64,000 nt of DNA from Escherichia coli (GTDB lineage Bacteria; Pseudomonadota; Gammaproteobacteria; Enterobacterales; Enterobacteriaceae), in assembly GCF_009931435.1 (NCBI RefSeq), contig NZ_CP043414.1; one strand, written 5' to 3'. Position 1 is the first letter of the stretch. The number at the start of each line of letters is the position of its first letter. Shown piece by piece: positions 14,349 to 38,724 of this stretch. Position numbers and translations under genes: made by a program. A model generated the notes under the pieces. It ran no database searches, had not been told where the DNA came from, and worked only from the letters and a program-made list of their open reading frames with translations.

Positions 14349-14479
14349 GTAAAACTCCATTTTATTTAATCAAGGAACTGGTGACCACACCAGGGGCCAT
14401 ATAGGATATGCCTAATACCTTGGCGTGAGCAGTCCGGAACTGGAGTAGAACTCTTTGTAAAAAGCACTATTTGTTCTTG

Positions 14480-16471
14480 TTACTCAAGCAAGGTTAATAA
14501 TTGTTCGCAAAGCAAAACGCAGTTATTCATTGCTTCTCCCCGTGCCTCGCCTTCTGTATTACGAAATTGTCCCAACACATGTGCCAGCCGATAAAAACCC
14601 ATCGCGGTGAGTTCATTGACCAGCAACTCTGACTGACTAATGGCACTCTGTTCCTGATAGCGCCAGCCATTATGGAGCAGTTGAATAAGCAACGCCTGAC
14701 AGCGCATCAGTAACTGATGAGTGGTAGACGGTACAGGCAGAACGCTGGCAGAAGGTAGCGGTGTCACAGGCGCAGTTTCTGCGTCCAGTGCCCAGGCGCG
14801 GGTTTGCGTCATCATTACTCGTGGTTCCAGTGTCAATTGCCCCTCAGCAAAATTGATAAACCCAGAAACCAGACTAACGGGATCTTCTGTTTGTTGTAAT
14901 AGAGCTGCCATGCGTTCAACAGCAAAGGGCGCACTGGCTGAAGCTGGCAGTGATAACGTCAGCACATTATCTTCACCTTCGCCACTGATTACCTGCGCAT
15001 CCAGTGTCTGCCGACTGCTGTCCCAACCGAGTGAAATGCACTCTTCTACTGGCAGAATAAATAAGTTATCGACCTGGTTAAGCGGTCGTATGGCGGCTGG
15101 CGGACGTTGGCGTAAATATTCCCGCAAAGCCACAATGCCCGGCTGGCGCAGTGGTGCGCTCAACATTTGCCAGGCATCAGGCGACAGCGGAACAACACTG
15201 CTTAAGCGGTTGCGGGTAGCTAATAGCAACTCGCCATCGGCACTGCGTTTTGCTGCTTGTGAAACAATTTGCCCACCCGCCAGCGCGCCAGCCTGAAAAC
15301 TAAACAGCCGCCGTTTTGCCGCTGGAGAGTTATCCTGTTCACTTCTCGGCCAACTGCGCGAAAGATGCAAAATACTGCCGGTGTCGGGATCGGTGAACCA
15401 GATGCGTAAACCATACCGCTCATTATCCTGCCAGCAACGCATACCTAGTGACACCAGCCGCAAATGATCAAGCTTTGCTTCGCCAGCAATGCCTGCGCCA
15501 ACGACCGTGCGCCACGGTATGGGCGGTACTTCACCGACACTGTCACGTCGCGCTATCTCTTGTGCACTGTTCAAGCGACTGGTTAACGCCGCAAGCTGGC
15601 ACAAGCATTTTCCGGCATGATAGTGGCTGGCGCGGGCGTGGAAGGCATCAACGCTTGCCCGTAGCTGTCGTAGTGATTCACTTACCCAACGCCAGTTGCA
15701 GCGTTCCGCCGCTTGCTGCGCGCGGCTGAAAGCAGCCTCGTAATGAATAAGCGGCTGGCTGATCCCGCCCAGCCATAATGCCTGACTTAATTGCTGAACA
15801 TAGTGACGACATGCTTTACCTTCGTCGCTGGAAAACGGATCGTCAGATGATGTGACGTGTTCACTGTGCATCTGCCAGATCAAATGAGTAAATTCTGCTT
15901 GTTGATTTTTGGCCTCGACGAAGGCCTGCACAGCCAGTACTACGTGTTCACACAGCGTTCCTTCAATACAGTCACAACGGGCGAAACGAATGCTGCTGCG
16001 GGAATAAAAACGCACATCGCTCATCGGTAAGCGGGCAGAGGGAATTTCGCCCGGGGTGCAGAACAACTCAATGGTGATGCCTTTAGCGACCAGCGCCTGC
16101 GCGCGTTTGCGCGTGGTATTGGGCAGGGTAGCCAGTTCTTCCTGCCAGATTGCCGGATCCCACTCTTCTTCTTTTTCCGTAGGCTGGGCGGTGGCACAAA
16201 GTCGTTGATAACTTAACACCAGCATCACGCGATGACGGCACATGCCGCTGGCCCCGCAGCTGCATTGAGCCTCTTTCAGTGCCTGACTGTTCGCCAGCCG
16301 GGTACGGACACCGTCACTGAACGTGGCGATTAAAGCGCCGTTCTCATGGCAGATTTCCGGGACATTGCCATTTTCCAGTTCCTTAAGGCTGCGCTTCACA
16401 AAACCAGCATTGCTTAACGCCGTCAGGGCCTGCGGTGTCAGTTCTAATAATTCCGGACGTAGTGAATTCAT
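14480..16471 (-). CDS. yehQ: SWIM zinc-finger protein YehQ (start uncertain)
   Basis: Two CxCxnCxH motifs (CSCGASGMCRH and CDCIEGTLCEH); first ATG (MNSLRPELLEL) lies directly after the yehP stop. Confidence 0.75.
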   Translation of the reverse strand: MNSLRPELLELTPQALTALSNAGFVKRSLKELENGNVPEICHENGALIATFSDGVRTRLANSQALKEAQCSCGASGMCRHRVMLVLSYQRLCATAQPTEKEEEWDPAIWQEELATLPNTTRKRAQALVAKGITIELFCTPGEIPSARLPMSDVRFYSRSSIRFARCDCIEGTLCEHVVLAVQAFVEAKNQQAEFTHLIWQMHSEHVTSSDDPFSSDEGKACRHYVQQLSQALWLGGISQPLIHYEAAFSRAQQAAERCNWRWVSESLRQLRASVDAFHARASHYHAGKCLCQLAALTSRLNSAQEIARRDSVGEVPPIPWRTVVGAGIAGEAKLDHLRLVSLGMRCWQDNERYGLRIWFTDPDTGSILHLSRSWPRSEQDNSPAAKRRLFSFQAGALAGGQIVSQAAKRSADGELLLATRNRLSSVVPLSPDAWQMLSAPLRQPGIVALREYLRQRPPAAIRPLNQVDNLFILPVEECISLGWDSSRQTLDAQVISGEGEDNVLTLSLPASASAPFAVERMAALLQQTEDPVSLVSGFINFAEGQLTLEPRVMMTQTRAWALDAETAPVTPLPSASVLPVPSTTHQLLMRCQALLIQLLHNGWRYQEQSAISQSELLVNELTAMGFYRLAHVLGQFRNTEGEARGEAMNNCVLLCEQLLTLLE

Positions 16472-17604
16472 GACTGAAGATTCTCCGCAAGCCAGGTCGC
16501 CAGTTCGCCTGGCGTCATCGCGGCTATTTGTGCGCCGACATTTACCAGCGCCTGGGCTGTATCGCGGTCGTAGCAAGGTGTTGCGGTGCTATCGAGCGCT
16601 GCCAGTCCCAGCACTTTGATGCCGCTCTGGACACACTTTTTCACCTGATGCGTCAGCAATGATGATGAACCCCCTTCATAGAAATCGCTCACGAGGATAA
16701 TGACGCTTTTCGCTGGTTGTTCAATAAGTTGCCGACCATACTCCACGGCACTGGCGATATTGGTCCCGCCGCCCAGTTGTACTTTCATTAATAACTCTAC
16801 CGGATCAGCAACGTCTGCCGTGAGATCAACGACGCTGGTGTCAAAAGCGACCAGATGGGTGCGGATACCGGGTAACTGCCATAAACAGGCCGCCATCACC
16901 GCTGAGTGGATCACCGAATCGACCATTGATCCGCTTTGATCAACCAGTAACACCAGCTGCCATTGTTCGCTATGGCGTTTAATTCGGCTGTTAAAGCGGG
17001 GGGATTCGATATACAACTTGCCGTGTTGCGGGTGCCAGTGTTGCAGGTTGGCGCGCAGAGTACTTTTGAAATCGAAATTACGCGCCAGTGGAATAAATGA
17101 GCGGCGACGGCGATCGCGTACACCTGAAAAAGCCTGACGAACTTCCTTTGCCAGTCGCGCCATAATTTCTTCAACAACCTGGCGCACTATCCGGCGGGCG
17201 GCAGCCAGCACTTCGGGATTCATCAGATGTTTGGTGTGCAAAACGGCGCGTAGCAGGCTTTCAGAGGGCTGCATACGTTCCAGCACGTCGAGATTCGTCA
17301 CCACATCTTCAATGCCGTAGCGCAGTACGGCATCGCTTTCCAGCCGCTCAATCACCTGTTGCGGGAACAGCGTGTGAATACTGTTGATCCAATCAGGGGT
17401 GGTGAGATTTGAGCCACCTAATCCACCGGAGCGTTCACCACGCTGGAGCCGTTCAGGGTCGCGCCCGTACAGCCACTCCAGCGCGTGGTCTATCCGCCGG
17501 GCGTTGTCATCCAGCCCACAAAGCGTCGTTTCTGCCGCTTCGCCAAGAATTAATCGCCAGCGTTGTAGCTCACGAGTGGTCAGAAGATCGTTCAGTTCAG
17601 ACAT
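16468..17604 (-). CDS. yehP: von Willebrand factor A domain protein YehP
   Basis: Internal start MSELNDLLTT gives 378 aa; MIDAS-like DxSxS motif (LVDQSGSM); overlaps the yehM stop. Confidence 0.8.
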   Translation of the reverse strand: MSELNDLLTTRELQRWRLILGEAAETTLCGLDDNARRIDHALEWLYGRDPERLQRGERSGGLGGSNLTTPDWINSIHTLFPQQVIERLESDAVLRYGIEDVVTNLDVLERMQPSESLLRAVLHTKHLMNPEVLAAARRIVRQVVEEIMARLAKEVRQAFSGVRDRRRRSFIPLARNFDFKSTLRANLQHWHPQHGKLYIESPRFNSRIKRHSEQWQLVLLVDQSGSMVDSVIHSAVMAACLWQLPGIRTHLVAFDTSVVDLTADVADPVELLMKVQLGGGTNIASAVEYGRQLIEQPAKSVIILVSDFYEGGSSSLLTHQVKKCVQSGIKVLGLAALDSTATPCYDRDTAQALVNVGAQIAAMTPGELATWLAENLQS

Positions 17605-19876
17605 GGAAAACTCCCCAGTGTTGCAGTGATGCCAGTGCCTGCTGTTCGAGTTGTTGATGATGTGCAATGGCTTGCGGTGGGCAATGCAACGGCATTTGCA
17701 GCGCCGAAACGGGAAGCTGAGCGAGCTGGTAATGCTCAAGCACCTGATGCGCCAGCGTCCCGCGTTCTCGTGGCGGTAGCCAGGCCATCGCCGCGCGCAA
17801 ATCGGGCAGGGCGTTAATAAAATCGGCGTCACTCAGTTGATTCAAATGGCTGCTGAAACCGGCGATAAATGCAGGCTGACTGGCCAGTTGATGGCGGGCT
17901 AATGCCAGCAAACCGTGCAGCGCCTCGCCAGATTGTGCCGGGGATAATTGTGCCAGCATCGTCAGCGCCGCTTCGGCACTGGCGTTGGGATGTTCCAGAC
18001 GCATCAGCGCGCCAAGGGCCGCACCGCGATCCAGCGCTGGGGCATGAATCGCCTGACTGCGACGTTCCAGTAAGGCTACCGCCGCAGAAAGCGAAACGCC
18101 GGGTAAATTAACGCCGCTATTTAGATCGCGCAGGATATGGCAAAGCGCCTGCCAGCTATGCAGGTGAGCGTGAAACTCCTTCTCATCCGGCCTGCCGTTG
18201 GATTCACATAGCCACAGTGTGCGATCGATAGCCGCGTATAACGTCGTCTGTAATATCTGCGCGCCTTGCATACCGCTGATTTCATCGAGCTGCCACAAGG
18301 CGTAAAGCACTTCCAGCGCCTGGCCCATTTCGGCAAACTGATTTTCCTGGGCGATTAATAATGTGAGTTGTTCCAGTAATTGCTGACTGAAGGACGCCAG
18401 ACCCGCTAACGCTGCCTGGCTAAGACATGTGGTGATGCCGCTGATTCCACCCGCGTCCAGCATATCGGCTTCTAATTTATTGCGTGCGGCCTCCTGGAGT
18501 GTGGCACCAAAGCAGGCGGCTTCAATCAATGCCGCATGTTGGCTAAGTGGCTGGGTTAATGTCCAGCGTTCTTCACCGTTGCCCGCCAGCGTCAGTGTAC
18601 TTCCGTGCTGGCGCACAATGCCGGGAATCTCCAGTATTGCCAACCGATGTAGCACCTGACTTTGCGCCAGTCCATCGGGGGTAAAGCGATTTAAGGTAAG
18701 CTCCGCCGGAAGAGAGATTCCGGTACGTTCCAGTTCGCAGGTGACATCTTTTGGCAGAGGTGGCTGTGGCGTCGAGGGGGCAAGTTTACCGAATCCGTCA
18801 CCTGCTAATGTGTCTATCAACGTTACCAGTATCGGATCGGTATCGGGATGAATAACGCCGCGATAGCTCCACGGCAACGGCGCGTTCAGGGCTTCTTTGA
18901 TCAGCGAGCCTGCTATAGCATCCAGCCAGTCAGTGCGTAACGGTAGTGTATGACCGCGCAACTGTGCCAGTGCCATCGCATGCAGATGAGCGGCAGCCAT
19001 ATCCGCTGTTGAAGCAGGCAAGTGGTGCTGGCGCAAACGGGTAAGAACCGTTTTTAGTAGTTGTTCACCTGCCTGCTGCAAGCCCCACCGCCAGCACCAG
19101 TTTTGCCAGACCGGGGCAGGCATTCCTGAAAGGTATCCTGCCAGCACATCAAGGCGCTTTTCACTGTATGGCGTGAGATAGCAACCTGTAACGGCATCAT
19201 CCTGTGAGAGCAATTCTGGCTTGTTAATTTCTTGCGGGCATTCGCGCCACATTTTTGCAAGTGCCGGAGCGTGCCAGCCTCCGCAGACGACTAATACGTC
19301 GCCATTATTTTGCTGCATCGCCCATGCAATCCAGCGGGCCATAAAGGCTTCGCGCTGACGATTGAGTGCATCGCCGGAGGCGTCGCCCCGCAGTTGTGCA
19401 AAATAGTGCGCCAGTGCAGAGGGTAATATAGTTTGCTGGCTTTCATCTTCGAACAGGTGATCCCACAGAGTGTCGCTGTTATCCATACGAGTGGCACGCA
19501 GCAACAAAGCCTGGCTTTCCTCTTGCGTACCGGGTGACTCGTCCTCTTCTTCACTCTGCGCCCAGCAAGGCAAATCGATGAAGTAAGTTTGTGCCTGAAT
19601 ACGACGTGCGGCTTGTAGCGCCTGCCACTCCGGCGAAAATTCAGCAAATGGCGTCCAGGCACCACGCCCGGGGGCCGCACCGTCCTGATACTGGCAATAA
19701 CTGTAAATAGCTACCGGAAGCTGGTGGGCTAACAACAGTTCGTCTACCCGGTCATTAAAATCAGCCGGGCCTTCAATCAACACGTATCGTGGCCGCTGGC
19801 TTTCGATTAACGATTTCACCAGCCGGGCGCAGGCCGGACTATGATGCCGGATGCCGACAATTAACGGCTCGCTCAT
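17597..19876 (-). CDS. yehM: Uncharacterised protein YehM
   Basis: Internal start MSEPLIVGIRHH gives 759 aa; overlaps the yehL 3' end; no recognisable catalytic motif. Confidence 0.75.
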   Translation of the reverse strand: MSEPLIVGIRHHSPACARLVKSLIESQRPRYVLIEGPADFNDRVDELLLAHQLPVAIYSYCQYQDGAAPGRGAWTPFAEFSPEWQALQAARRIQAQTYFIDLPCWAQSEEEDESPGTQEESQALLLRATRMDNSDTLWDHLFEDESQQTILPSALAHYFAQLRGDASGDALNRQREAFMARWIAWAMQQNNGDVLVVCGGWHAPALAKMWRECPQEINKPELLSQDDAVTGCYLTPYSEKRLDVLAGYLSGMPAPVWQNWCWRWGLQQAGEQLLKTVLTRLRQHHLPASTADMAAAHLHAMALAQLRGHTLPLRTDWLDAIAGSLIKEALNAPLPWSYRGVIHPDTDPILVTLIDTLAGDGFGKLAPSTPQPPLPKDVTCELERTGISLPAELTLNRFTPDGLAQSQVLHRLAILEIPGIVRQHGSTLTLAGNGEERWTLTQPLSQHAALIEAACFGATLQEAARNKLEADMLDAGGISGITTCLSQAALAGLASFSQQLLEQLTLLIAQENQFAEMGQALEVLYALWQLDEISGMQGAQILQTTLYAAIDRTLWLCESNGRPDEKEFHAHLHSWQALCHILRDLNSGVNLPGVSLSAAVALLERRSQAIHAPALDRGAALGALMRLEHPNASAEAALTMLAQLSPAQSGEALHGLLALARHQLASQPAFIAGFSSHLNQLSDADFINALPDLRAAMAWLPPRERGTLAHQVLEHYQLAQLPVSALQMPLHCPPQAIAHHQQLEQQALASLQHWGVFHV

Positions 19877-19886
19877 GCATCTTTCC

Positions 19887-20975
19887 TCACGGCAGGCGGT
19901 GGCGAGCTTGATAATAAGCCTGCCAGTGAGCTTCTTTATGTGTAGCGACACGTTGTTCGAAGTAACGGCGCAGACGTGCGCGATCTTCTTCGTTATCTTT
20001 GACGATGGTTCCGGCAATACAGTCCACCAGGTCGGCTGGCTCCCCCGCGCGATTCGCTAAAAACCAGGCGCGGACGCCCACGGCGTGGGCCACGTTAACG
20101 GCTTCAGCGGTGGACATAATCGCTGTAAAGGTATCCATTGAGGTTTTCTTTTCGCCGTTGGCACGCAGATCGCGGAAGGTGCGGACCAGTAACTCCAGTA
20201 CCGCGTCAGGCACTTTATGCGGAATGCCACTATGGGCCAATAAACGCGCCGAAGCACTGGCGACCAGTTCCAGTTCCTGGGCGAAATCCATAATCGGAAA
20301 GACAGTTTCAAAATCGAATCGACGTTTTAGTGCCGCGCTCATTTCATTAACGCCGCGATCGCGGGTATTGGCAGTGGCAATAATATTAAAGCCTTCTCGC
20401 GCATAGAGCTGACTGGCTTCACCAGTGAGTTCCGGCACCGTCATAACCCTGTCAGAAAGCATACCTAACAGACAGTCTTGTACTTCCAGTGGTGTACGCG
20501 TTATCTCTTCAAAACGGACAATTTTGCCGTCGCGCATTCCCTGGTAGAGCGGGGCAGGGACCAGCGCTTCCGTTGACGGACCATGATTAATAAGCAGGGC
20601 GTAGTTCCAGCCGTACTTGATTTGATCTTCGGTGGTAGATGCGCCGCCCTGGATAGTTAACCCAGCATCGCCGCTAATAGCGGTTGCCAGTAATTCAGAC
20701 AGGAGCGATTTTGCGGTGCCTGGTTCCCCCACCAACATCAAACCGCGCCCGGTAGCAAGAGTGACTAACATGCGTTCGACAGCGGAGGGACTAATCACGA
20801 CTTTACGGCTGATATTTTGCGCGCTATCGCCAAGAATAAAAGAACGGGCCGCAGGCAAACTTAACTGCCAACCGGGCGGGCAAGGTGCGTGATCATTTTG
20901 TTTTAATTTTGCCAGTTCATCGGCGTATAACACAGCGGCAGGTGGACGCTGCAGATGATTATTCTGCGGTGACAT
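19887..20975 (-). CDS. yehL: MoxR-like AAA+ ATPase YehL
   Basis: Walker A LVGEPGTAKS; start at MSPQNNHLQRPP has an AGGGA Shine-Dalgarno-like sequence upstream and gives 362 aa (the ORF-track start at 21041 has none). Confidence 0.8.
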   Translation of the reverse strand: MSPQNNHLQRPPAAVLYADELAKLKQNDHAPCPPGWQLSLPAARSFILGDSAQNISRKVVISPSAVERMLVTLATGRGLMLVGEPGTAKSLLSELLATAISGDAGLTIQGGASTTEDQIKYGWNYALLINHGPSTEALVPAPLYQGMRDGKIVRFEEITRTPLEVQDCLLGMLSDRVMTVPELTGEASQLYAREGFNIIATANTRDRGVNEMSAALKRRFDFETVFPIMDFAQELELVASASARLLAHSGIPHKVPDAVLELLVRTFRDLRANGEKKTSMDTFTAIMSTAEAVNVAHAVGVRAWFLANRAGEPADLVDCIAGTIVKDNEEDRARLRRYFEQRVATHKEAHWQAYYQARHRLP

Positions 20976-21094
20976 ATATTCATCCCTGAAATGTATTAAT
21001 GAAATAAAAGATATTTTACGCGCAATAAATGTTTGGCGCATTAGTTGTTTGAGCGGAAAATATCTGGAAAGCAGATCACAGTAAATAAAAAAAC

Positions 21095-21235
21095 CTGCTG
21101 GTGAGGCAGGTTCTTTTATTTACTACTTTCAGGCCTAACACCACGGCCTGTGCAACATCGTGTTCCAACGAACGAATTATAACCACCGCTGGACCCCGTT
21201 GCAATTAAGATAATGAGATTTATAATCCTGACAGT
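21095..21235 (-). ncRNA. orzO: Candidate OrzO antitoxin sRNA, copy 1 (boundaries approximate)
   Basis: On the minus strand the hairpin aacctgcctcaccagcaggtt is followed by a 7-T run, i.e. a terminator for a transcript running divergently from the zorO leader. Confidence 0.35.
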
Positions 21236-21407
21236 TGGGAGGTTGCGCCGGATCGAACCAATTTCAAGTCCTGGCTACCGGACGGGTGGTGCTGCAGGTG
21301 GTGCCCTGATCCGGAGTGCAACATCGTGGTCCAACATACGTAAACCAGTATCGACAGGCAGTGTAAGGGTAAGGTGCTGGTGTTGCGCTCCTTAATAAGG
21401 AGAGCGG

Positions 21408-21497
21408 ATGGACACGCTGACACAAAAGTTAACCGTGCTCATTGCCGTACTGGAGTTATTAGTGGCTCTGTTACGGTTGATTGATTTGTTGAAGTAA
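21408..21497 (+). CDS. zorO: Type I toxin ZorO, 29-aa hydrophobic peptide, copy 1
   Basis: atg..taa ORF encoding MDTLTQKLTVLIAVLELLVALLRLIDLLK, preceded by ggagag Shine-Dalgarno-like sequence and followed by hairpin gggggaaaataccgcttccccc plus T-tract; matches my recollection of ZorO. Confidence 0.75.
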   Translation: MDTLTQKLTVLIAVLELLVALLRLIDLLK

Positions 21498-21704
21498 CGG
21501 GCAAATTGAAACGCATCTAAGGGGGAAAATACCGCTTCCCCCTTTAATAAAATGATTACTGTTTTTAATAATTCATCATATAACTCATTTTTATTTATAA
21601 ATTCATCGATTTTATATTCAACGCACCATTTGACCGGGATGTAAATATTTATGGTGGGCTATTGGCAAAAAATATCTGGAAAGTAGATCGCAGAAAATAA
21701 AAGA

Positions 21705-21845
21705 ACCTGCTGGTGAGGCAGGTTCTTTTATTTACTACAGTGACGCTAACTTGCTGATTGTGCAACATTTCGTACCAACGAATAAATTATAACCATATCC
21801 ACACTCCATTGCAATTCAGTGAATGAGATTTATAATCCTGCCCGT
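21705..21845 (-). ncRNA. orzO: Candidate OrzO antitoxin sRNA, copy 2 (boundaries approximate)
   Basis: Same minus-strand hairpin plus U-rich tract as copy 1. Confidence 0.3.
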
Positions 21846-22017
21846 TGGGAGGTTGTGCCGGATCGGACCAATTTTAAGTCCTGGCTGCCGGACGGGTGGT
21901 GCCGCAGGCGGTGCCCTGATCCGGAGAGCAACGTTTCGTACCAACATACGTAAACCAGTATCGACAGGCAGTGTAAGGGTAAGGTGCTGGTGTTGCGCTC
22001 CTTAATAAGGAGAGCGG

Positions 22018-22107
22018 ATGGACACGCTGACACAAAAGTTAACCGTGCTCATTGCTGTACTGGAGCTATTAGTGGCTCTGTTACGGTTGATTGATTTGTT
22101 GAAGTAA
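22018..22107 (+). CDS. zorO: Type I toxin ZorO, copy 2
   Basis: Peptide identical to copy 1 despite synonymous nucleotide differences (gcc to gct, tta to cta). Confidence 0.75.
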   Translation: MDTLTQKLTVLIAVLELLVALLRLIDLLK

Positions 22108-22160
22108 CGGGCAAATTGAAACGCATCTAAGGGGGAATACCGTTTCCCCCTTTAATAAAG

Positions 22161-22481
22161 CTATTTTTCTATTTGTTGGATGAATATATTTTGTAGTTCA
22201 CGATTAAAAATTGCTATTACAGTTTTAGGTGATTCACCTCGTAATTTACGCTCATCAATAAATTCATCTCTTATATAAATCAACGCATCATTTATTAGCG
22301 GGTCGACATCTTCTCGATCACGTTGATGAAATGTTGGATGTAGCCGGAATCGCTCCAACCGGTAGACGGAACCAGTAAATAATTCAGAGCGTTTATGGAC
22401 CTCAAGTCTGAAGGAAAACGGATCTTCAGGTACAGGGTCCTCATAATCGTAAATAGCGACCAGCTCTTTTTGCACGATCAT
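22161..22481 (-). CDS. yehK: Small uncharacterised protein YehK
   Basis: 106-aa ORF downstream of yehI; acidic; no known motif. Confidence 0.7.
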   Translation of the reverse strand: MIVQKELVAIYDYEDPVPEDPFSFRLEVHKRSELFTGSVYRLERFRLHPTFHQRDREDVDPLINDALIYIRDEFIDERKLRGESPKTVIAIFNRELQNIFIQQIEK

Positions 22482-22540: not shown

Positions 22541-25500
22541 TTAATGGAAAATGACGTCGGGTGCGCTTAACGCCTCACTCAAATCAAACACATCAAGTGC
22601 GGCAAAAGTGACAGATTTATTGTCACGGTACACTCGAAGAGAACGGAAGCTCATTAGCGCTTTGCTATCAGCACTGTAGTGGTTAAAACCGGGTGAAAAC
22701 TTAAGGACCAGCCGATACTCGCCCAGGTCATAGACACATGCGTCCTCAAAACCTGACTCCCAGCCTTTGTATCGCATTCCCATAAGTTGCCCAACGGTTG
22801 CGGATTTACCTTCCCAGCGAGTCAGGCTGTTACTGGCTGACTCGTCAGGTGTGAGCAGCACTGTGCGCCGCATCAACTGGCGAAAAGGCGGCATAATTTC
22901 GTAATCGGCAAAAACCTGTGCAAATTCACTGCGCATTTCTGCTGTCATTTCTAACGGGTGGGCAATGCCAATCAGATCATCCGCAGGCAGGTCAATTGGC
23001 TCATCTTGTGCGTTGCAGAATTCCCCCTCTGCGGCCACACGAAAGGCGTTGAGTAAACGACGCGGTTCATTTGCCGGATAAACCGCCCATATTAATCGCT
23101 GAGTAACCAGGCGGGTAAAGGGATGATTAACAAACAGAGAATGAAAATCTGCCAGCGACCAGCGTCGGGTGGTGCGCAGGGCAGTTTCAAGACGTGGGAG
23201 CAGGTTTTTGCTCACCTGAGTGGCATCTTTTTTTAGCCCTTTTAGTCGGGCCAGTGCCTCGGGTGCTTTCAGTTGATCGTCATCGGCGCGCAACCGGGGA
23301 ACGCTTTTCTGGCGAACGTTTTGCTGATCAAAGATAACCGGGTTGAGGTTTTCATCGAAGCGAACGGTAAACTGCCGGGGTCCAAAATCAAATATCAACG
23401 CCTGCGGATCATCCAGGCCCAGTGTTGGGACTAATCTGTCCGCTAACTCTTCCTGGCTTAGTCCACGATTTTCTGCGACCACCTGAAGAAATTCCGCCGC
23501 GTTATCACGTAAGGGACGGGATTTCGCCCGTTGCGATATATGATGCAGCTGTATCAGCGCCATATCATTATTCATCAGGGTAAGTATGTTCAGGCCACTG
23601 ACGGCACGGGCAGATTTGCCTTCCTGTGGCCAGGCGAGGATCTGTGTTGTCAGATCCCGAGCCGTGCTTTCGTCACCAAAGAGACTTAACGCCAAAAAAG
23701 CCCAGTTGTCTTTTGCGGGGGCGCCAGCCTGTTGCCAGGCGGTGAAGAGATCCCTGGCAAAAGCGGCCAGCGTTTGTGGCTGGCAGAACGTTTTCAGTTG
23801 TTCCAGCCCACAATAAAAACGTCCGCCCTGGGTAAAGCGCAGCATTTCGCCGATAATTTCCAGAGCATCATCAGTAACAGGTTGATTATTCGTGATAATT
23901 CTCGGTCTGGACCACATTGTCGGATGCCAGAAATCAGGGGCTTTGGGAATGCGTGCCGGGTAAATGTCCATTGGACCCTGTTTAAGTAATTGCTCTAGGG
24001 AAGGCCATACATCTGTACGCTGCCAACGATTGGCTACAGTTTGTAGCAATTCGCCATGTCCTTGTTCGTAAAGTAAACGCAGGGCAAGTAATGCAGCTTC
24101 GCTATTATCGCTGGATTTGGTGTAGACAAGAGGGATAAGTGCCGTAGCCGTATGCTCCGGCCATTGTAAAATCCACTGGCGAGCCAGATTACGCTGGCCC
24201 GCAAAACGATGCCAGACGCGGGCAACGGGCAGAGCCAGTTCTGTTGCGCCAAAATGAATCAGCAGCGGAAATATCTCTTTGGGATGTCGGGCAAAGGCGG
24301 TGATTAATCCGGGCAAAGCATCGGTACCCAGGACACTTAACAGATATTCTACCCCGGTGTAATGAAAATCAGCCGCGACAATTTGTTGCCAGCACGATAC
24401 CGCCATTTCGCGCGGCATCTGCGCGATAAGGTACAGATTCCAAATCCCCCAACGCTTTTCATTACCATAGTAAAATCCGTGCTGAAAAGTTCGCCACCCT
24501 CCCATCAACGCAATGCTATCTTGTGCCAGTAATGATTTGGTGGCTTCTTCCCGGTACTGTTTAGATTTGGCCTGATGCGCGTGATAAGTATGCAAAAGTC
24601 CTATTGATGTGTATTCTTGCAGTTGCTGAGTATCAAAGGCATCCAGCTGTCCATTAAGAAGACGCTTATTAAATTCCAGGCTATGAACGTCAAAACCTAA
24701 TTCCCGCAAGAAGGTATCCGCCCCTCTGTTAGCAAGACGTTCGTCAAAAGACATGGCGCTAAAATGGTCAATTGCAGTTTGCTGTTCCGGCGTCCAGTGT
24801 TTATTCGGCGACTTGTACGCTTGCGGTACAAGCGTAAGTTCAGGTAGCGAAAAGTGAGTTATGGAAGTCTTTTTCCTGCCACGCCATGGTGGTGAAACGA
24901 GGATTTCAGGCAGACTGCTGTTATTGGTGCTATCAATAACCGGTTTTGGCGAAGCCGATAAATAACTATTCACCACTGCCCGGGCTTGAGTACTTAACGA
25001 CGGGATCACCTCTTCTGCCAGTTGTGGCTGCGATGCCATCAGCGTTTGTAACAGCGTATGCCAGTATTCATCACGTGCTTTTTGCTGTGCAGGCAGCTTT
25101 TTGTCTTCGATGATAGGATAACCAGGGCGCGCAGGGGGGGCTTTTAACGCCAGCAGTTCTGCCAGTGCGGCGAGCGTCGCATGGGGGAAGTTTTTACTGT
25201 ATTTAGCCACACGTTGCAGGCTGGGTTTGTTTTTATCAGCCACCAGTAGCAAGGTGCGGATGACTTGCGGATGGTTAATTTGTACCAGCAGACTGCCGCA
25301 ATCTTCTTTATGTGCATACATCGCGAGGCGCGGAACGGCTGCCAGTCCTTGTTCGCGCAAAAGGGCAGCGCAGGCCGCGTAGCCGAAGTGGTTTTCATGC
25401 GACATGTAGCTGGCTTCGCGATCGCTAAATATATCCTGACTCCAGTAGTGATCGAGTTTTCTGACCGCGCTGGGGTCATTAGCAACAACTTTTAACCACT

Positions 25501-26200: not shown

Positions 26201-29200
26201 TTATTCAAACAGGGCTTCGATGTCGTTAATTAACTCGCTAGCGGTGATGTCATCGAGTGCGGAGAACTGCGCTTCCTGTGTTGAATCAATCCCCCAGCCA
26301 TAGCTTTCTGCTTTGCCTTCCCATAGCCACAGCTTGCTTAAGAGTTGCTCGGCACTGAGTTCGGCTGGCGACATACCAACTGCAAATCCTTCATCGATTT
26401 CCATGATTAATGACCAGCGGCCCAGAGGTTTGATCATCCAGCCGATCCAGCCACCGTCCTGCGGTTCACCACGCATCCAGCCTTTATTCGCCAGCCCCAT
26501 TACCCGACCGCTCGGGCATTTTCTGCCTGCCCAGCGGGTCAATTCGCTGGCATTGCGCTCGGTTTCTGTCAGGGCGTAACTGTTACGGTCGAGCTGGCGG
26601 AACGGCGGTAGCAGTTCGTAGTCGGCAAAAAGCTGACCAAAGGCGGCAGCATCCGTGGGTGATATTTCCAGAACGTGAGGAATGCCAACAGAGATATCGC
26701 CTTCCGGCAGGGTGAAAAGATCATCGTCAGCGGTGCTGTAGCTGTTATCTTCCGCCACACGGAAGCACGCCAGTAACTGGTTGTCTGCGCTATAAATGCC
26801 CCAAATCAGACGGCGGGTTAAGTGGCAGACCAGCGGATGCTCAACCAGAAAGAGCTGAAAGTTTTCTGGCGACCAGCGGCGGCGCAGGCACATGGCGGAT
26901 TCCAGCCTTGCCACCTGCTGGGCGGCAACGGTACGCGCATCTTTTTTCAGCAGTTTGTAGCGGTTAACTGCATCGTTCGCTTGAGTTTCATCATCGCTTT
27001 TGTTCGGTTTAGGCAAGTCTTTCAGGCGGCTGCCGGAAGCATCACGCACAAACGGTTTTAAGGTTTCATCAAAGCTGACGGTGAACTGCCGTGGCCCGAA
27101 ATCCAGCAGCAGCGAACCGTTATCATCCAGACCGAGATCCGGTGCTAACCGGTCTTCAAGCTCCGCCACCGTGAGTTCGCGGCTCTCGGCAATGTCGGCA
27201 ATTTTTTCTTTTGCCCGCTCCTGTAATGCTTTGAATTTCAGTTTCTGGGCGATGCCGTTAAGCTGCATCAGGGCGATATCACTACCGATAGCAGCGAGAA
27301 TATCCAGCCCGACGGTGGCGCGTTTATGCTGGGATTCACCAGGCCAGGCGCGAATCAAAGGCGTCAGTTTGCGGGCGGTATCATCGTTGCCGAGAACACC
27401 TAACGCAGTGAACGCCCAGCTTTCTTTCGACGGTGCGCCAGCGGTCTGCCAGGCGGTAAACAGATCCCAGGCAAATTCAGCCAGTGAGTCGGCGGTACAG
27501 GCATCTTTCACCTGCAATAATCCCGCATACAGAGCCTCTTCCTGAGGGAAGCGGAGCATTTCACCGAGGTGGAGGAGGGCGTTATCTGGCAGTGATTGGG
27601 CGTTTGCTTTTAATACCGGGCGTGTCCAGAGCGATGGCTGATAAAAGGCCGGAAGTGTCGGGATTTTAGTCGGGTGATTATCTAAGGGATCGAGCGCAAG
27701 TAGAGCGTTCACCGCATCGGTTACTTCCGGCTGGTTATAACGCTGGGCGATTTCTTGCAGTAATGACGGATAACCACTTTCAATCAACATACGTAAGGCG
27801 GCGCGGGCGTTATCCTGGGCTTCACCAGCTTTGCCGAGTGCCGCAGGCAACAGGCCGATAATGGCATGTTCCGGATATTTCAGCAGCCAAGTGCGGGCGT
27901 CTTGTCGTAGAGTTTTGAGTTTGTTAAAGGCGCGGGCGACGGCAGGAGCCAGTTCCGTTGCGGCAAAATAATTAGCAACCGCAAAACCTTCTTGAGGGTA
28001 GCGTGAAAACGAGTGTAGAAAACCACTCATACCTGCCAGTCGCAAATAAAGCATGACAGGTTTTACCGCGGTATGCGGCTCTTTGCTGAGAAACTCCCAT
28101 AGTTTAATCGCTTTTTGCATAGGTAAAAAGGGAAGTGAGTTGAGATGCCACTCCCCCTGATACGGTGCATGGTGGGCTTTAAACATTTGGATGAGTGTAG
28201 CGAAGTCCTCACGTTCCCATGCGTCAATTGCCGAGTCAGAAGCGCCGATATATTTATATGTGTCAAAATCCCAGCGGCGATACCCCAGCGAGTAAAGGAA
28301 ATCTTTAGCACCTTCACCTGGCTTATGCGATTCCCAGTCCCAATGAGTTTGAAACTCTTTTGCTTCTGTGTCGGTTATTGTGCATATGGATTTGAGTTTG
28401 AGCGGTGCTAAATCCAACACCGGAATCGTCGATTTTTTCTTTTTCGAAAGCCAGGGAGGTAAGACTAATACGGCTGGCAGTAGAGCGGCGCAGGCATGGT
28501 TTGACGGTTGTATCAGTTGTTGCTGGCATGATTTCAGCACTTCAACTGCGGCTGTCGAGAGCCAGGGAGTGACCTGTTCTGCCAGTGCCGGTTGCGAGAT
28601 AAGCATCGTCATTAGCATAATGCGCCAACTATTCTCTTCTTTTTGCGCAAGAAGTTCCGCCAGTGCTGCCAGTGCTGCGTGTGGGAACGCAGCGCAGGCT
28701 TTCGTCATTCGATCGTGACAGCGTTTAGTAAGCCCGGCTACACGTATAAGCAGTGTTAATGCGAACGGATGATTGATATGACGCAACACATCGGCGCAGT
28801 AGTCACTTGCGGCATAGGGAGCAAATCGGGGCAGGGCTGCAACACCTTGCTCCTGTAATACGGTGGCTGACAATATCGCACCACAATAGTAATCATCAAA
28901 AATGGCATATGGCTCGTGATATTTTTCTAATGAGGCAAGAATGTGCTCATCAGTCGCCACTATTTTTAGCCACTCAAGCGAGGGTAATTTTTTTTTCCCC
29001 AGTAGACGCTGGGCAATTTCATGTGCAATTTCTGGTTTTTCGGGTAATAACAAAGCAATTAATGGTTGCCGCCATTCTGGAATATGTGGAATTGCGGCAA
29101 TAAGTTTTTGTGCACATTTTTGCCAGAGAGACTCTTCCGCCAGTGATAAATGTTTCCGTAGGCGTAATTCAAAACTGGAATATTGCTGCAGGTTATCAGG

Positions 29201-29989
29201 TGCAATACCAGACGGCAGAATAATAATGGTATTATTCGCATAATCCCATTCAATATCAATCTGTTGAAGATGTATTACTACATCAGTAGCATATTCCAGG
29301 CCACCTTCCTGAACGAGCTGATCCATAACATCCTCACGCTCTTTATATCTCGTGCACTTCAGTTCAAGTGCCGTGAGTACAGCCATTACTGGTGATGGTA
29401 ACTGTGTTGTTTTCAGGCAGTCGATCTGACTGAGCGCCTGGGAGATGGCGTTTTGCCATTCTAAAGAACAGGCGCTGAAATCAAATGTGGCTGTTTTATT
29501 ATCCCGTTGCGACACGCTACAGGCTAAGCGACGTAACTGGGTCAAGTTGTCTGCTTGCTGAACAGGAACTCCGGGAAAGCGGCGATGGCTTAACGTGGTG
29601 TGTACAACTTCGGGCGGAAAAACGACAGCAATATCTTTCGCCAGCCACGGTAAAACATCATCTGTATTTTTGTCAGCCACACGGGCTTCTGCTACGCAAA
29701 AGGGTTGTTCCTGAATAATGGTGGATAAGGCCGCTACCTTGAGAGAATCCGTTACCGTTTGGGAAGGTTGCAAAGAATTATCCTTCGCTTGCCCCACATA
29801 CCCCTTCTTCACCTTCTCCGCAATCAGCCTCAGTTCCGCTTTTTCCGCCGCCGCAGCATCAGCAAAGCTTTTTACCTGGCTTTGCCCGTTGGTACTGACT
29901 TTGCCCCAACTAATATGCAGCTCGTTTCCCTGTTGCTCCACTGCCCAGAATTTATGTGATTTTTCGTCCTGATAAATATAGGTTTTCAT
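26201..29989 (-). CDS. WGR-domain plus DUF4132 protein, molR/yehH-like paralog A (intact)
   Basis: 1262-aa ORF; N-terminus MKTYIYQDEKSHKFWAVEQQGNELHISWGKV is WGR-like; aaggaa Shine-Dalgarno-like sequence upstream; C-terminus ends LDDITASELINDIEALFE. Confidence 0.8.
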   Translation of the reverse strand: MKTYIYQDEKSHKFWAVEQQGNELHISWGKVSTNGQSQVKSFADAAAAEKAELRLIAEKVKKGYVGQAKDNSLQPSQTVTDSLKVAALSTIIQEQPFCVAEARVADKNTDDVLPWLAKDIAVVFPPEVVHTTLSHRRFPGVPVQQADNLTQLRRLACSVSQRDNKTATFDFSACSLEWQNAISQALSQIDCLKTTQLPSPVMAVLTALELKCTRYKEREDVMDQLVQEGGLEYATDVVIHLQQIDIEWDYANNTIIILPSGIAPDNLQQYSSFELRLRKHLSLAEESLWQKCAQKLIAAIPHIPEWRQPLIALLLPEKPEIAHEIAQRLLGKKKLPSLEWLKIVATDEHILASLEKYHEPYAIFDDYYCGAILSATVLQEQGVAALPRFAPYAASDYCADVLRHINHPFALTLLIRVAGLTKRCHDRMTKACAAFPHAALAALAELLAQKEENSWRIMLMTMLISQPALAEQVTPWLSTAAVEVLKSCQQQLIQPSNHACAALLPAVLVLPPWLSKKKKSTIPVLDLAPLKLKSICTITDTEAKEFQTHWDWESHKPGEGAKDFLYSLGYRRWDFDTYKYIGASDSAIDAWEREDFATLIQMFKAHHAPYQGEWHLNSLPFLPMQKAIKLWEFLSKEPHTAVKPVMLYLRLAGMSGFLHSFSRYPQEGFAVANYFAATELAPAVARAFNKLKTLRQDARTWLLKYPEHAIIGLLPAALGKAGEAQDNARAALRMLIESGYPSLLQEIAQRYNQPEVTDAVNALLALDPLDNHPTKIPTLPAFYQPSLWTRPVLKANAQSLPDNALLHLGEMLRFPQEEALYAGLLQVKDACTADSLAEFAWDLFTAWQTAGAPSKESWAFTALGVLGNDDTARKLTPLIRAWPGESQHKRATVGLDILAAIGSDIALMQLNGIAQKLKFKALQERAKEKIADIAESRELTVAELEDRLAPDLGLDDNGSLLLDFGPRQFTVSFDETLKPFVRDASGSRLKDLPKPNKSDDETQANDAVNRYKLLKKDARTVAAQQVARLESAMCLRRRWSPENFQLFLVEHPLVCHLTRRLIWGIYSADNQLLACFRVAEDNSYSTADDDLFTLPEGDISVGIPHVLEISPTDAAAFGQLFADYELLPPFRQLDRNSYALTETERNASELTRWAGRKCPSGRVMGLANKGWMRGEPQDGGWIGWMIKPLGRWSLIMEIDEGFAVGMSPAELSAEQLLSKLWLWEGKAESYGWGIDSTQEAQFSALDDITASELINDIEALFE

Positions 29990-33951: not shown

Positions 33952-35985
33952 TTATTTCACCTGATGGCCCGGTTTAGCACCGGCATCCGGGCTTAGCAGG
34001 AAAATATCTTTCCCGCCAGGACCGGCAGCCATCACCATGCCTTCAGAGATACCGAAGCGCATTTTACGTGGTGCCAGGTTAGCCACCATAATGGTGTGAC
34101 GACCAATAAGTGCCTGCGGATCCGGGTAAGCAGAACGAATGCCGGAGAAGACATTGCGTTTTTCACCGCCGAGATCCAGTGTCAGGCGCAGCAGTTTGTC
34201 AGAACCTTCAACAAACTCTGCGTTTTCAATCAGCGCCACGCGCAGGTCAACTTTAGCGAAGTCGTCAAAGGTGATGGTTTCCTGAATCGGATCATCTGCC
34301 AGCGGGCCAGTCACGGGGGCGGCAGTGGCTTTCACTTCTTCTTTAGACGCTTCCACCAGTGCTTCAACCTGCTTCATATCGATGCGGTTATACAGCGCCT
34401 TGAACGGATTCACTTTGTGGCCCAGCAGCGGTTGCTGGATGCCATCCCAGGTCAGTTCCGTATTGAGGAATGCTTCTGCACGCTCGGTCAGTTTTGGCAG
34501 TACCGGCTTCAGGTAAGTCATCAGTACGCGGAACAGGTTAATGCCCATAGAGCAAATCGCCTGCAGGTCAGCATCGCGACCTTCCTGCTTCGCCACCACC
34601 CACGGAGCCTGTTCATCGACATAGCGGTTAGCCAGGTCAGCCAGTGCCATGATTTCGCGCACTGCTTTACCAAATTCACGGCTTTCCCATGCTTCACCAA
34701 TCACTTCAGCGGCATCCGTGAAGGTTTTGTACAACTGCGGGTCAGCCAGTTCGCTTGCCAGCACGCCGTCAAAACGTTTGTTGATAAAGCCTGCGTTACG
34801 GGACGCCAGATTAACCACTTTGTTGACGATATCGGCATTCACACGCTGAACGAAATCTTCCAGGTTGAGATCGATATCATCAATGCGCGAAGAGAGTTTC
34901 GCAGTGTAGTAGTAACGCAGGCTGTCAGCGTCAAAATGATTCAGCCAGGTGCTGGCTTTAATAAAGGTGCCGCGAGACTTGGACATCTTCGCGCCGTTCA
35001 CCGTTACATAGCCGTGAACAAACAGGTTGGTCGGCTTGCGGAAGTTGCTACCTTCCAACATGGCAGGCCAGAACAGGCTGTGGAAGTAAACAATATCTTT
35101 ACCGATGAAGTGGTACAGCTCGGCGGTGGAGTCTTTCTTCCAGTATTCATCGAAGCTTACGCTGTCGCCGCGCTTGTCACACAGATTCTTGAAAGAACCC
35201 ATGTAGCCAATCGGTGCGTCCAGCCAGACGTAGAAATATTTGCCCGGCGCGTTCGGAATTTCAAAACCGAAGTACGGTGCATCGCGGGAGATATCCCATT
35301 GTTGCAGGCCAGATTCAAACCACTCCTGCATTTTGTTTGCCACCTGCTCCTGCAACGCACCGCTGCGGGTCCATGCCTGCAGCATTTCGCTGAAAGAGGG
35401 CAGATCAAAGAAGAAGTGTTCAGAATCACGCATTACCGGGGTAGCGCCAGAAACCACCGATTTCGGCTCGATCAGTTCAGTCGGGCTATATGTTGCGCCG
35501 CAGACTTCACAGTTATCGCCGTATTGATCCGGTGATTTACATTTCGGGCAGGTGCCTTTCACAAAACGGTCCGGCAGGAACATGCCTTTTTCCGGATCGT
35601 ACAGTTGAGAGATGGTGCGGTTTTTAATAAAACCGTTTTCCTTCAGGCGAGTATAGATAAGCTCAGACAACTGACGGTTCTCTTCACTGTGCGTCGAGTG
35701 ATAGTTGTCATAGCTGATGTTAAAGCCTGCGAAATCAGTCTGATGCTCCTGACTCATTTCGCCAATCATCTGCTCCGGAGTGATACCAAGCTGCTGAGCT
35801 TTCAGCATGATTGGTGTACCGTGGGCATCGTCGGCGCAGATGAAGTTGACCTCGTGGCCGCGCATTCGCTGGTAACGGACCCAGACATCAGCCTGGATGT
35901 GCTCCAGCATATGGCCGAGGTGGATTGAGCCGTTAGCGTACGGCAGTGCGCACGTCACCAGAATTTTCTTCGCGACTTGAGTCAT
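33952..35985 (-). CDS. metG: Methionine--tRNA ligase
   Basis: Start [29 protein letters not shown] (HIGH motif) gives 677 aa; KMSKS motif present. Confidence 0.95.
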
Positions 35986-36152
35986 AGTAGGCATTACTTC
36001 TTTGTAGTGAAAAGGGCTTAGATAGTACCAAATGGGGCATGGTTACGTAAGTCCTGTGCAAGCATCTTATGATGCATTATTAGGTAAGTACTTAGCTGTT
36101 AACTTCAGGTAAACTAATAGCGATAAGTTATCTTTATAAATAAGGAGTCGGG

Positions 36153-37262: not shown

Positions 37263-37289
37263 CGCGCATTAACCTTTTTGGTTGTTTTT

Positions 37290-37342
37290 TATACACCGCA
37301 GAGATGTTACATTGATGCGGTGTATTTGTTTTTGCCGCATTA
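37290..37342 (+). terminator. Rho-independent terminator after mrp
   Basis: Hairpin acaccgcagagatgttacattgatgcggtgt followed by tttgttttt. Confidence 0.5.
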
Positions 37343-37524
37343 ATGAACACTTATTTAATGCTGCGAATATTCTGCGGACCTTCGTCCGAAACTCTATAAA
37401 GTCGATTGATCGTACAGGCAATGCATCATTATCATCCTTCGTGGCTGTGTAGTGGATGTACAGCTATAGTTTGTTATGCACTCATTCTATCCAGGCATAA
37501 CCTTTACTACAGGGATAACGTTCA

Positions 37525-38644: not shown

Positions 38645-38659
38645 TAAATAAAATTTCAA

Positions 38660-38712: not shown

Positions 38713-38724
38713 AGAGGCATTAAG

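Follow-up and report, generated by a model that had tools for sequence, protein, structure and literature searches.

Two zor–orz modules between yehL and yehK

Judged from its sequence, the region between yehL and yehK in the E. coli DNA analysed here (a stretch of 64,000 nucleotides, hereafter the window) very probably holds two intact, independently regulated type I toxin–antitoxin modules of the known zor–orz family. The zorP–orzP and zorO–orzO pairs of Escherichia are already characterised, and the window copy is intact and ordinary, since the same two copies occur in about one third of E. coli genomes. With the locus already known, its value as a discovery is small, and the practical value lies in annotation. 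Where zor and orz matched in E. coli genomes, RefSeq carries no annotation under them, and an NCBIfam search returned no model matching the 29-residue peptide; raw-sequence readers will therefore keep rediscovering zor–orz. The same search found no family for YehK and, for YehL, weak AAA-ATPase matches only, far under the curated cut-offs.

The initial annotation described two direct repeats of about 495 bp, spaced about 610 bp apart, and this description was borne out. Three in-register direct-repeat blocks were reported by the repeat search: 21057-21126 with 21669-21738 (94% identity, start-to-start distance 612 nt), 21149-21448 with 21759-22058 (89%, 610 nt) and 21523-21566 with 22131-22174 (77%, 608 nt). 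Aligned as whole units, the repeats are 494 nt (21058-21552) and 490 nt (21670-22160) long and 88.5% identical, with small indels. The placement between yehL and yehK was likewise verified, as was the match to ZorO/OrzO of enterohaemorrhagic E. coli, for which the evidence is an identical peptide, two matches to Rfam RF02083 and an equivalent locus in the same intergenic region of O157:H7 Sakai.

The reading of the locus as a duplicated zorO–orzO has to be revised, however. The units represent two paralogous pairs that were already known: identity to the P unit, zorP–orzP, of Sakai is 97.2% for unit 1, which shares only 88.5% with unit 2, whilst unit 2 carries the seed and target of Sakai zorO–orzO on sequence comparison. 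A recent duplicate was rejected, as the two pairs are old paralogues whose seeds and mRNA targets are those of Sakai. The duplication is taken to be old because E. whittamii also carries both unit types.

In Sakai, a single contiguous BLAST alignment covers window positions 14476-22164 at the same yehK–yehL position, with two zor ORFs lying between yehK (L004:32848-33165) and yehL (34406-35494), although the genome as a whole is just 94–97% identical to the source host of the window. Sakai and EDL933, in which the locus is known as z3289/z3290 (Fozo et al. 2010, cited in PMC3919570), have the units in the window order, P beside yehL and O beside yehK, and agree with the window in promoters, 174-nt leader, RBS position, seeds, targets and the ZorO peptide. 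Published work on zor–orz includes Wen et al. 2014 (PMC3919570), Wen et al. 2017 (PMC5397157) and a 2024 BLASTn survey in mSystems of about 2,200 E. coli genomes (PMC11264685).

Table 1. Features of the two zor–orz units; positions are those of the window.
Feature	Position	Strand	Remarks
zorP–orzP unit 1	21058-21552		adjoins yehL
orzP-type sRNA gene, unit 1	21087-21169	-	beside yehL; ~83 nt from predicted start to end of U-run
orzP intrinsic terminator hairpin	21092-21112	-	seen in fold; sRNA fold z = -2.7
orzP seed (5' 20 nt)	21150-21169	-	identical to Sakai and K-12 OrzP
Divergent promoter block, unit 1	21176-21226	.	promoter scan
orz promoter, unit 1	TTGCAA 21204-21199, spacer 17, TATAAT 21181-21176	-	predicted; 10/12
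zor promoter, unit 1	TTGCAA 21199-21204, spacer 16, TATAAT 21221-21226	+	predicted; sigma-70-like; 10/12
zorP-type 5' UTR	21234-21407	+	174 nt, predicted from promoter
EAP region, unit 1	21306-21335	+	
Orz target, unit 1	21316-21335 (+83 to +102)	+	seed complement with 1 mismatch
RBS AAGGAG, unit 1	21397-21402 (+164 to +169)	+	within predicted hairpin
Toxin ORF, unit 1	21408-21497	+	29 aa, MDTLTQKLTVLIAVLELLVALLRLIDLLK; ZorO-type, lacking the T3S substitution seen in Sakai ZorP
3' UTR and terminator-like hairpin, unit 1	21498-21552	+	stem about 21519-21544, then TAATAAAA; conserved in orthologous units
A+T-rich spacer separating the units	21553-21669	.	collinear with Sakai
zorO–orzO unit 2	21670-22160		adjoins yehK
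orzO-type sRNA gene, unit 2	21699-21779	-	beside yehK; ~81 nt
orzO terminator hairpin	21704-21724	-	sRNA fold z = -3.1
orzO seed	21760-21779	-	identical to Sakai OrzO
Divergent promoter block, unit 2	21786-21836	.	promoter scan
orz promoter, unit 2	21814-21786	-	predicted
zor promoter, unit 2	21809-21836	+	predicted
zorO-type 5' UTR	21844-22017	+	174 nt, predicted from promoter
Orz target, unit 2	about +85 to +102; 20-nt seed-complement match 21926-21945	+	18 pairs; identical to Sakai zorO
RBS AAGGAG, unit 2	22007-22012	+	within predicted hairpin
Toxin ORF, unit 2	22018-22107	+	29 aa, MDTLTQKLTVLIAVLELLVALLRLIDLLK, identical to ZorO
3' UTR and terminator-like hairpin, unit 2	22108-22160	+	GGGGG 22131-22135, CCCCC 22146-22150, tail to 22159

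Antitoxin genes and promoters

Both antitoxin genes are recognised by the Rfam model RF02083 (OrzO-P, gathering score 60), with minus-strand matches spanning the full model: over 21087-21162 in unit 1 (98.9 bits, E 1.5e-16) and over 21699-21772 in unit 2 (87.3 bits). The minus-strand terminators which had been taken to fit a divergent antitoxin sRNA were found inside both matches as the hairpin AACCTGCTGGTGAGGCAGGTT (21092-21112 and 21704-21724), which lies between an A-run and a T-run. Rfam matches to STnc370, ncr1015 and the Thr and Trp leaders, which scored under the gathering score, overlapped the Orz matches and were set aside as terminator-hairpin look-alikes. The 5' end of orzP is placed by the -10 box at 21181-21176.

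In both units the palindromic TTGCAA serves as a -35 box common to the predicted zor and orz promoters. Across E. coli zor/orz loci the hexamers TTGCAA (-35) and TATAAT (-10) are more than 99% conserved (PMC11264685), and the hexamers of all four window promoters match the consensus in Table 3 of that survey, as does the RBS AAGGAG.

Toxin mRNAs and peptide

A leader of roughly 175 nt had been proposed for each toxin mRNA, and the predicted starts, about 174 nt before each ATG, agree with it; the Shine–Dalgarno-like sequence claimed for each copy was also found, as AAGGAG 5 nt before the ATG. The EDL933 zorO leader has been mapped and probed experimentally and has the layout seen in the window (PMC5397157). 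In the minimum-energy folds of both units, nucleotides 1-22 are paired with nucleotides 74-102, and six of the six RBS positions are paired. When the leader was folded with its first 28 nt deleted, the EAP region was still partly paired, so that prediction does not clearly reproduce its opening.

At the 3' ends, where a terminator had been attributed to each copy, the hairpins of both mRNAs fold as 9-bp G+C-rich stems, but a strict consensus terminator scan detected neither, because the tail, TTTAATAAA, has no clean T-run. Unit 2 is convergent with yehK, which lies on the minus strand. The overlap described between the second zorO terminator and the yehK stop does not exist, the hairpin (22131-22150) ending 10 nt before the stop codon on the minus strand (22161-22163).

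Both repeats encode the same 29-residue hydrophobic peptide, as first described, and MDTLTQKLTVLIAVLELLVALLRLIDLLK is exactly the published ZorO peptide (PMC6669753). Its residues 20-24 form the ALLRL motif, which is needed for toxicity (PMC6669753). The peptide of unit 1 has the ZorO-type Thr3, unlike Sakai ZorP, which has Ser3; a ZorO-type peptide at the P position is also present in strain 104 and O55:H7, the ZorO sequence being the one encoded by 72.5% of zor ORFs (PMC11264685). The two window ORFs differ at 2 of 90 nt, both synonymously. Purifying selection had been read from this conservation of the peptide despite synonymous changes. Two differences are weak evidence alone, but constraint is supported by a comparison of 11 ORFs, in which about eight synonymous and two non-synonymous variable sites were counted by eye.

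Low expression might suggest relics: one unit or both would be silent, kept by hitch-hiking or owing to recent ancestry, and would never yield a functional toxin. Native ZorO expression is indeed reported to be very low and barely detectable, with processing rare (PMC5397157, PMC9860968), and no phenotype is reported for a single chromosomal copy (PMC9860968). This reading is nevertheless very improbable. Promoters, RBS, ORF length, seeds and targets are intact in both window units, and the same elements are intact at 5–10% divergence in Sakai, strain 104, Escherichia sp. E1V33, MOD1-EC7003 and E. whittamii. Positions +103 to +174 of the 5' UTR are 100% identical between the paralogues, against a whole-unit difference of 11.5%, most variable ORF sites are synonymous, and the 29-residue ORF is intact in 99.5% of 2,439 surveyed loci (PMC11264685).

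Pairing and orthogonality

The two Orz RNAs are predicted to pair with their own toxin mRNAs. Nineteen of 20 seed and target positions pair in unit 1, with one internal mismatch, whilst in unit 2 the pairing runs unbroken over 18 positions, one of them a G–U pair, as in zorO–orzO of EDL933 and Sakai. Repression has been associated with at least 15 continuous nucleotides, or at least 17 with one internal mismatch (PMC3919570, used in PMC11264685), and both window units show pairing of this extent. Predicted cognate duplexes have energies of -34.0 and -31.3 kcal/mol, compared with -18.9 and -24.4 kcal/mol for the cross pairs, and none of 1000 shuffled targets reached the cognate energies. These values come from a 22-nt seed analysis; duplexes of full-length Orz with full-length mRNA were long and uninformative, a shuffled target giving similar energy. 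Within the 64-kb window a single target exists for each seed, the only other site matched by the unit 1 seed being the orz gene itself.

All seeds and targets are identical to those of Sakai OrzP/zorP and OrzO/zorO, and OrzO and OrzP are known to be discriminated through the V1 region (PMC3919570). Since the units differ precisely at the seed and target, each Orz should, on predicted pairing, control its own zor only.

This distinctness contrasts with the sequence nearer the toxin gene. Between the units, identity is only 76–80% in the seed, EAP and promoter blocks, compared with complete identity over +103 to +174, and the two synonymous ORF haplotypes have changed places in the window units relative to Sakai and strain 104. 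On these grounds it may be proposed, tentatively and with the odds against it, that the toxin ORF and proximal leader of both units evolve in concert by patchy gene conversion, selection keeping the seed and target segments distinct so as to yield orthogonal circuits.

The K-12 locus

The module had been described as absent from K-12 and as inserted between yehL and yehK. The first statement holds for the toxin only; in K-12 orzP persists, with both divergent promoters and some 30 nt of the zor leader, and this segment aligns with window unit 1. From about +30 of the leader on nothing is left in K-12, the target site and ORF being gone along with the entire O unit, whereas both units are complete in the window. 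This orz-only locus has been published as OrzPmg and is expressed (PMC11264685). As to the fate of the flanking genes in strains without zor–orz, K-12 does retain yehL and yehK, 306 bp apart, but with orzP still between them.

The second statement has the direction wrong. The K-12 remnant joins sequence whose place in O55:H7 is beyond the 3' side of the zor terminator. Such a junction is the signature of a deletion, hence the window holds no insertion, and on sequence comparison the K-12 state is a deletion derivative. Recent acquisition of the module, as a mobile insertion splitting the yeh cluster, might be suggested by the intergenic lengths (306 bp in K-12 compared with 1,185 bp in the window), by the one plasmid occurrence of zor–orz in the literature (PMC11264685) and by the four plasmid places among the genomes searched here. 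It is nonetheless extremely unlikely, and we reject it because of the orz remnant in K-12, with its promoters, leader start and deletion-type junction, and because E. whittamii and two further Escherichia species representatives carry the locus at the same site. The repeat search, moreover, reported the unit boundaries free of any further long repeats, direct or inverted.

Distribution and an sRNA role

In a set of 5,426 complete E. coli genomes, 3,397 contained zor and 5,232 contained orz, leaving about 1,835 in which orz is kept without the toxin. The copy-number picture published earlier is borne out in this collection, which is over twice the size of the one surveyed before. A scan of GTDB species representatives with a degenerate RBS-plus-ORF pattern gave matches in three Escherichia species representatives only, the pattern requiring an exact match such that diverged homologues would escape. 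That E. whittamii carries both unit types is a small added fact. Another is that the P and O tandem, with identical seeds and targets, is conserved in the Escherichia lineage of the window, which is without a close relative among the 5,426 complete E. coli genomes.

The excess of orz over zor raises the question of whether this is mainly an sRNA locus, in which OrzP, perhaps OrzO too, would have its own function, through trans targets or the downstream yehL operon, the toxins being dispensable. K-12, which expresses OrzP from intact promoters (PMC11264685), and the position of orzP, on the same strand as yehL and ending about 110 nt upstream of its start, would suit such a role. Weighing against it, a search of the 64-kb window at up to 3 mismatches found no other Orz seed targets, no trans target is known (PMC11264685), and both window toxin genes are intact with conserved regulatory elements. 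We regard this reading as rather unlikely, albeit much less so than relics or a mobile insertion. As the window toxins and their regulation are intact, a toxin–antitoxin relationship is present whatever else Orz does; the sRNA role thus supplements the main explanation and does not replace it. OrzP may act independently of the toxin, in connection with the neighbouring yehL operon.

Mechanism and related systems

The mechanism is established for EDL933 zorO–orzO, whose peptide, seed and target are identical to those of window unit 2, and we infer it for the window units from sequence identity; the transcription starts, processing and 3' ends given for them are taken by analogy from EDL933. In each unit a sigma-70 promoter would produce a toxin mRNA with a 174-nt leader, and the divergent promoter an Orz RNA of about 81–83 nt. 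Full-length zor mRNA would be poorly translated, its first 22 nt or so pairing with the EAP region (+73 to +102) and its RBS lying in a hairpin, until loss of the first 28 nt exposed the EAP region, a probable ribosome standby site. Pairing of the 5' 18–20 nt of Orz with the 3' part of the EAP region would block translation and lead to RNase III-dependent decay with no need for Hfq. The Zor peptide, if made, would insert in the inner membrane, resulting in depolarisation and ATP depletion.

For EDL933, toxicity, rescue by OrzO, partial dependence on RNase III and independence of Hfq have been demonstrated (PMC3919570, PMC5397157), and ZorO causes membrane depolarisation and loss of ATP (PMC9860968, PMC6669753). 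Experiments have centred on zorO–orzO; of the P-type it is known that OrzP is expressed and cannot repress zorO, and in the papers cited here we found no test of zorP toxicity or of zorP repression by OrzP. The one known phenotype, better growth on aminoglycosides with extra copies, is independent of toxicity (PMC9860968). This, together with the scarcity of native ZorO, means that ‘toxin–antitoxin’ describes the regulatory logic of the locus and not a demonstrated role.

A number of parallels can be drawn with other type I systems. The divergent, non-overlapping layout of zor–orz, a likeness of arrangement, is shared by tisB–istR1 and shoB–ohsC, in which the 5' end of the antitoxin also pairs with a long leader, far upstream of a sequestered RBS (PMC3919570, PMC5397157). 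As with zorO, 5' processing activates the tisB mRNA by exposing a standby site, but full-length zorO is, unlike tisB, partly translatable (PMC5397157). In dinQ–agrB the toxin ORF differs from zor, whilst a segment of about 113 nt in plasmid dinQ leaders is 71–74% identical to the zor 5' UTR (PMC11264685).

Architecture and identity of the two units

The yehL–yehK intergenic region carries two units, each combining a toxin gene (zor) with an antisense sRNA gene (orz). A repeat search of the window recovered three direct-repeat blocks in register, at spacings of 612, 610 and 608 nt, and the units share 88.5% identity. In both, the zor ORF has the RBS AAGGAG 5 nt 5' of its ATG and a promoter, TTGCAA-16-TATAAT, approximately 180 nt 5' of the ATG in a promoter scan, from whose position a leader of 174 nt is predicted; a G+C-rich hairpin is predicted 3' of the ORF. 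A second promoter, TTGCAA-17-TATAAT, lies on the minus strand of each unit and leads to a canonical hairpin and U-run, the palindromic TTGCAA being the common −35 box of the two promoters. The two direct repeats with an identical 29-aa peptide, Shine–Dalgarno sequence and leader described in the initial annotation are thus confirmed. The overlap it proposed between the second terminator and the yehK stop is not, since in unit 2 the hairpin runs to 22150 and the tail to 22159, adjacent to and convergent with the yehK stop codon at 22161-22163.

Features of the zor-orz locus and other Rfam matches in the window
Feature	Position	Strand	Details
Unit 1, zorP-orzP	21058-21552		494 nt, adjoining yehL
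Unit 2, zorO-orzO	21670-22160		490 nt, adjoining yehK
zor ORF, unit 1	21408-21497	+	29 codons, product MDTLTQKLTVLIAVLELLVALLRLIDLLK
zor ORF, unit 2	22018-22107	+	29 codons, product MDTLTQKLTVLIAVLELLVALLRLIDLLK, same as unit 1
OrzO-P (RF02083), unit 1	21087-21162	−	full-length, 98.9 bits
OrzO-P (RF02083), unit 2	21699-21772	−	full-length, 87.3 bits
Leader +103..+174, unit 1	21336-21407
Leader +103..+174, unit 2	21946-22017
CyaR	61221-61306	−	other Rfam gathering-score match
naRNA4	1421-1498	+	other Rfam gathering-score match
Peptidase-S11 RNA motif	398-478	+	other Rfam gathering-score match
TPP riboswitch	44876-44972	+	other Rfam gathering-score match

Recognition of the ZorO/OrzO system of enterohaemorrhagic E. 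coli was correct, and the finding is real, a textbook case of a known system at a known site. Both units match the Rfam OrzO-P model well above its gathering score of 60. Their peptide is, letter for letter, the ZorO peptide synthesised in PMC6669753, and contains the ALLRL motif necessary for ZorO toxicity (PMC6669753). The corresponding yehK–yehL region of O157:H7 Sakai (1,240 bp) has two such ORFs, ZorP adjoining yehL (MDSLTQ..., with T3S) and ZorO adjoining yehK (MDTLTQ...), and aligns collinearly with window 14476-22164 in a single alignment.

The further claim of a tandemly duplicated zorO-orzO does not hold. Unit 1 shares 97.2% identity with the Sakai P unit, as against 88.5% with unit 2; the yehK-proximal unit of E. 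coli strain 104 matches unit 2 at 99.0% identity. Over its first 24 nt the predicted Orz, and likewise the complementary leader stretch, is identical to Sakai OrzP/zorP in unit 1 and to OrzO/zorO in unit 2, and both types are present in E. whittamii. These matches rule out a recent duplication and indicate that the copies, judged by sequence comparison, are two old paralogues of the family. Among species representatives, one type was present at each retrieved locus of Escherichia sp. E1V33 (O-type) and MOD1-EC7003 (P-type). The unit 1 peptide is of the ZorO type, without T3S, as in strain 104 and O55:H7; the ZorO sequence is encoded by 72.5% of all zor ORFs (PMC11264685). The P-type unit of E. 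whittamii has a Q6R variant (MDTLTRKL...), with an extra positive charge near the N-terminus.

The K-12 arrangement

The module had been described as an insertion absent from K-12. The K-12 spacer (306 bp) nevertheless aligns to unit 1 over orzP, both promoters and approximately 30 nt of leader, and then jumps to sequence lying downstream of the zor terminator in O55:H7; only what follows those 30 nt of leader is missing. This remnant and jump point to a deletion in K-12-like strains rather than an insertion in the window. The K-12 arrangement is the published 'orz-only' state, and northern blots of MG1655 show OrzPmg (PMC11264685). As the initial annotation had proposed checking, strains lacking zor retain yehK and yehL.

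Distribution and annotation

The toxin leader and ORF (window 21270-21500) were found in 3,397 of 5,426 complete E. coli genomes, at 5,231 places (median 2 per carrier), and orz with the promoter block (21058-21235) in 5,232. By subtraction, some 1,835 genomes (34%) are orz-only and some 194 (3.6%) have neither; roughly 1,830 carry two toxin copies, if genomes with at least three are ignored. These counts reproduce the published distribution, in which 42% of 2,212 assemblies had two copies, 25% one, about 30% orz only and 3% none (PMC11264685). The locus is systematically unannotated: the listed E. coli genomes have no RefSeq features under zor or orz, and no NCBIfam model matches the 29-aa peptide.

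Predicted antitoxin–target pairing

Duplexes were predicted with the 5' 22 nt of each Orz, whose target lies at about +83..+102 of the zor leader. The cognate duplex of unit 1 reaches −34.0 kcal/mol (19 of 20 positions paired, one internal mismatch) and that of unit 2 −31.3 kcal/mol (18 continuous pairs, one G-U), energies attained by none of 1000 shuffled targets, whilst the non-cognate duplexes reach only −18.9 and −24.4 kcal/mol. Both cognate pairs have the extent published for repression, a minimum of 15 continuous nt, or of 17 nt where one mismatch is present (PMC11264685). The complement of each seed (the 5' 20 nt of Orz) occurs at only two sites in the 64-kb window, its own orz gene and the cognate leader. 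Identity between the paralogues is 76% in orz, 77% in the promoter block and 77% in the EAP/target segment (EAP, leader +73..+102), as against 100% in leader +103..+174 and 97.8% in the ORF.

mRNA folding and mechanism

In the minimum-energy folds of both full-length mRNAs, nt 1-22 pair with nt 74-102 and the RBS (+164..+169) is buried in a hairpin. This agrees with probing of EDL933 zorO, where the EAP, whose 3' part is the OrzO binding site, is protected in full-length RNA and exposed in delta-28, the mRNA without its first 28 nt, the RBS being in a stem in both forms (PMC5397157). Our delta-28 predictions did not clearly open this region, and that step is taken from the literature.

In EDL933, growth stops when ZorO is overproduced and is restored by OrzO, with RNase III needed at high toxin levels and Hfq not; the V1 segment prevents OrzP from repressing zorO (PMC3919570). 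OrzO is able to block translation as well (PMC5397157). The toxin resides in the inner membrane, where it causes depolarisation and ATP depletion (PMC6669753, PMC9860968). Unit 2 would be expected to act likewise, in toxin arrest and in OrzO rescue or repression, a safe transfer since peptide, seed and target are identical. Regulation of unit 1 is presumed from homology and predicted pairing.

Selection and possible exchange between paralogues

Purifying selection had been proposed from the synonymous differences between the two copies. These alone are weak evidence, since, taking about one random change in four to be synonymous, two of two would be so by chance in roughly 6% of cases. Constraint on the ORF is supported by a comparison of 11 ORFs (by visual count, about 8 of the variable sites are synonymous and 2 non-synonymous) together with the intact 29-aa ORF in 99.5% of 2,439 loci (PMC11264685). 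Leader +103..+174, which is 100% identical between the units against a unit-wide difference of 11.5%, looks invariant across all units inspected, and is an RNA segment under strong constraint, RBS hairpin included.

Neither synonymous ORF haplotype is bound to the P or O position. ORF sites 39/49 are C/T in window unit 1, Sakai O, strain 104 O, MOD1-EC7003 P and E. whittamii P, and T/C in window unit 2, Sakai P, strain 104 P and O55:H7 P; the window haplotypes are therefore swapped relative to Sakai. Despite this, seeds, promoters and terminators still follow position, a pattern suggestive of patchy gene conversion between the two paralogues. The system itself is already known; what is mildly new, and of evolutionary interest only, is that ORF haplotypes have apparently been exchanged whilst the specificity segments stayed distinct, and that the P/O pair is old (11 units compared).

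Host lineage and neighbourhood

Identity between the window and Sakai is 94-97% across more than 40 kb. Among the 5,426 genomes the window has no close relative, the best match reaching 97.6% across 8.9 kb of core genes. The source thus probably belongs to a divergent lineage of Escherichia or a cryptic clade, in which the zor-orz locus, seed sequences included, is nevertheless conserved.

orzP and yehL share a strand, and the orzP terminator ends only some 110 nt 5' of the yehL start codon at 20975 (window 20976-21086); even strains without the toxin, K-12 among them, keep orzP beside yehL. As Orz terminators on the yehL strand also stand between yehK and yehL, expression of yehL probably depends on a promoter of its own or on read-through from orzP.

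At 14472-14476 and about 10637 the window is without the IS629 copy present in Sakai yehQ, and the alignment to the retrieved Sakai region extends past yehU as far as the boundary of the Sp15 prophage. Segments 24255-24870, 27593-29788 and 36080-41888 (yehI, yehH/molR and the yehA-D fimbrial segments) are unaligned or 85-90% identical to Sakai. In yehI/yehH, identity to the window is only 90-95% for most E. coli genomes, and this neighbourhood is unusually variable.
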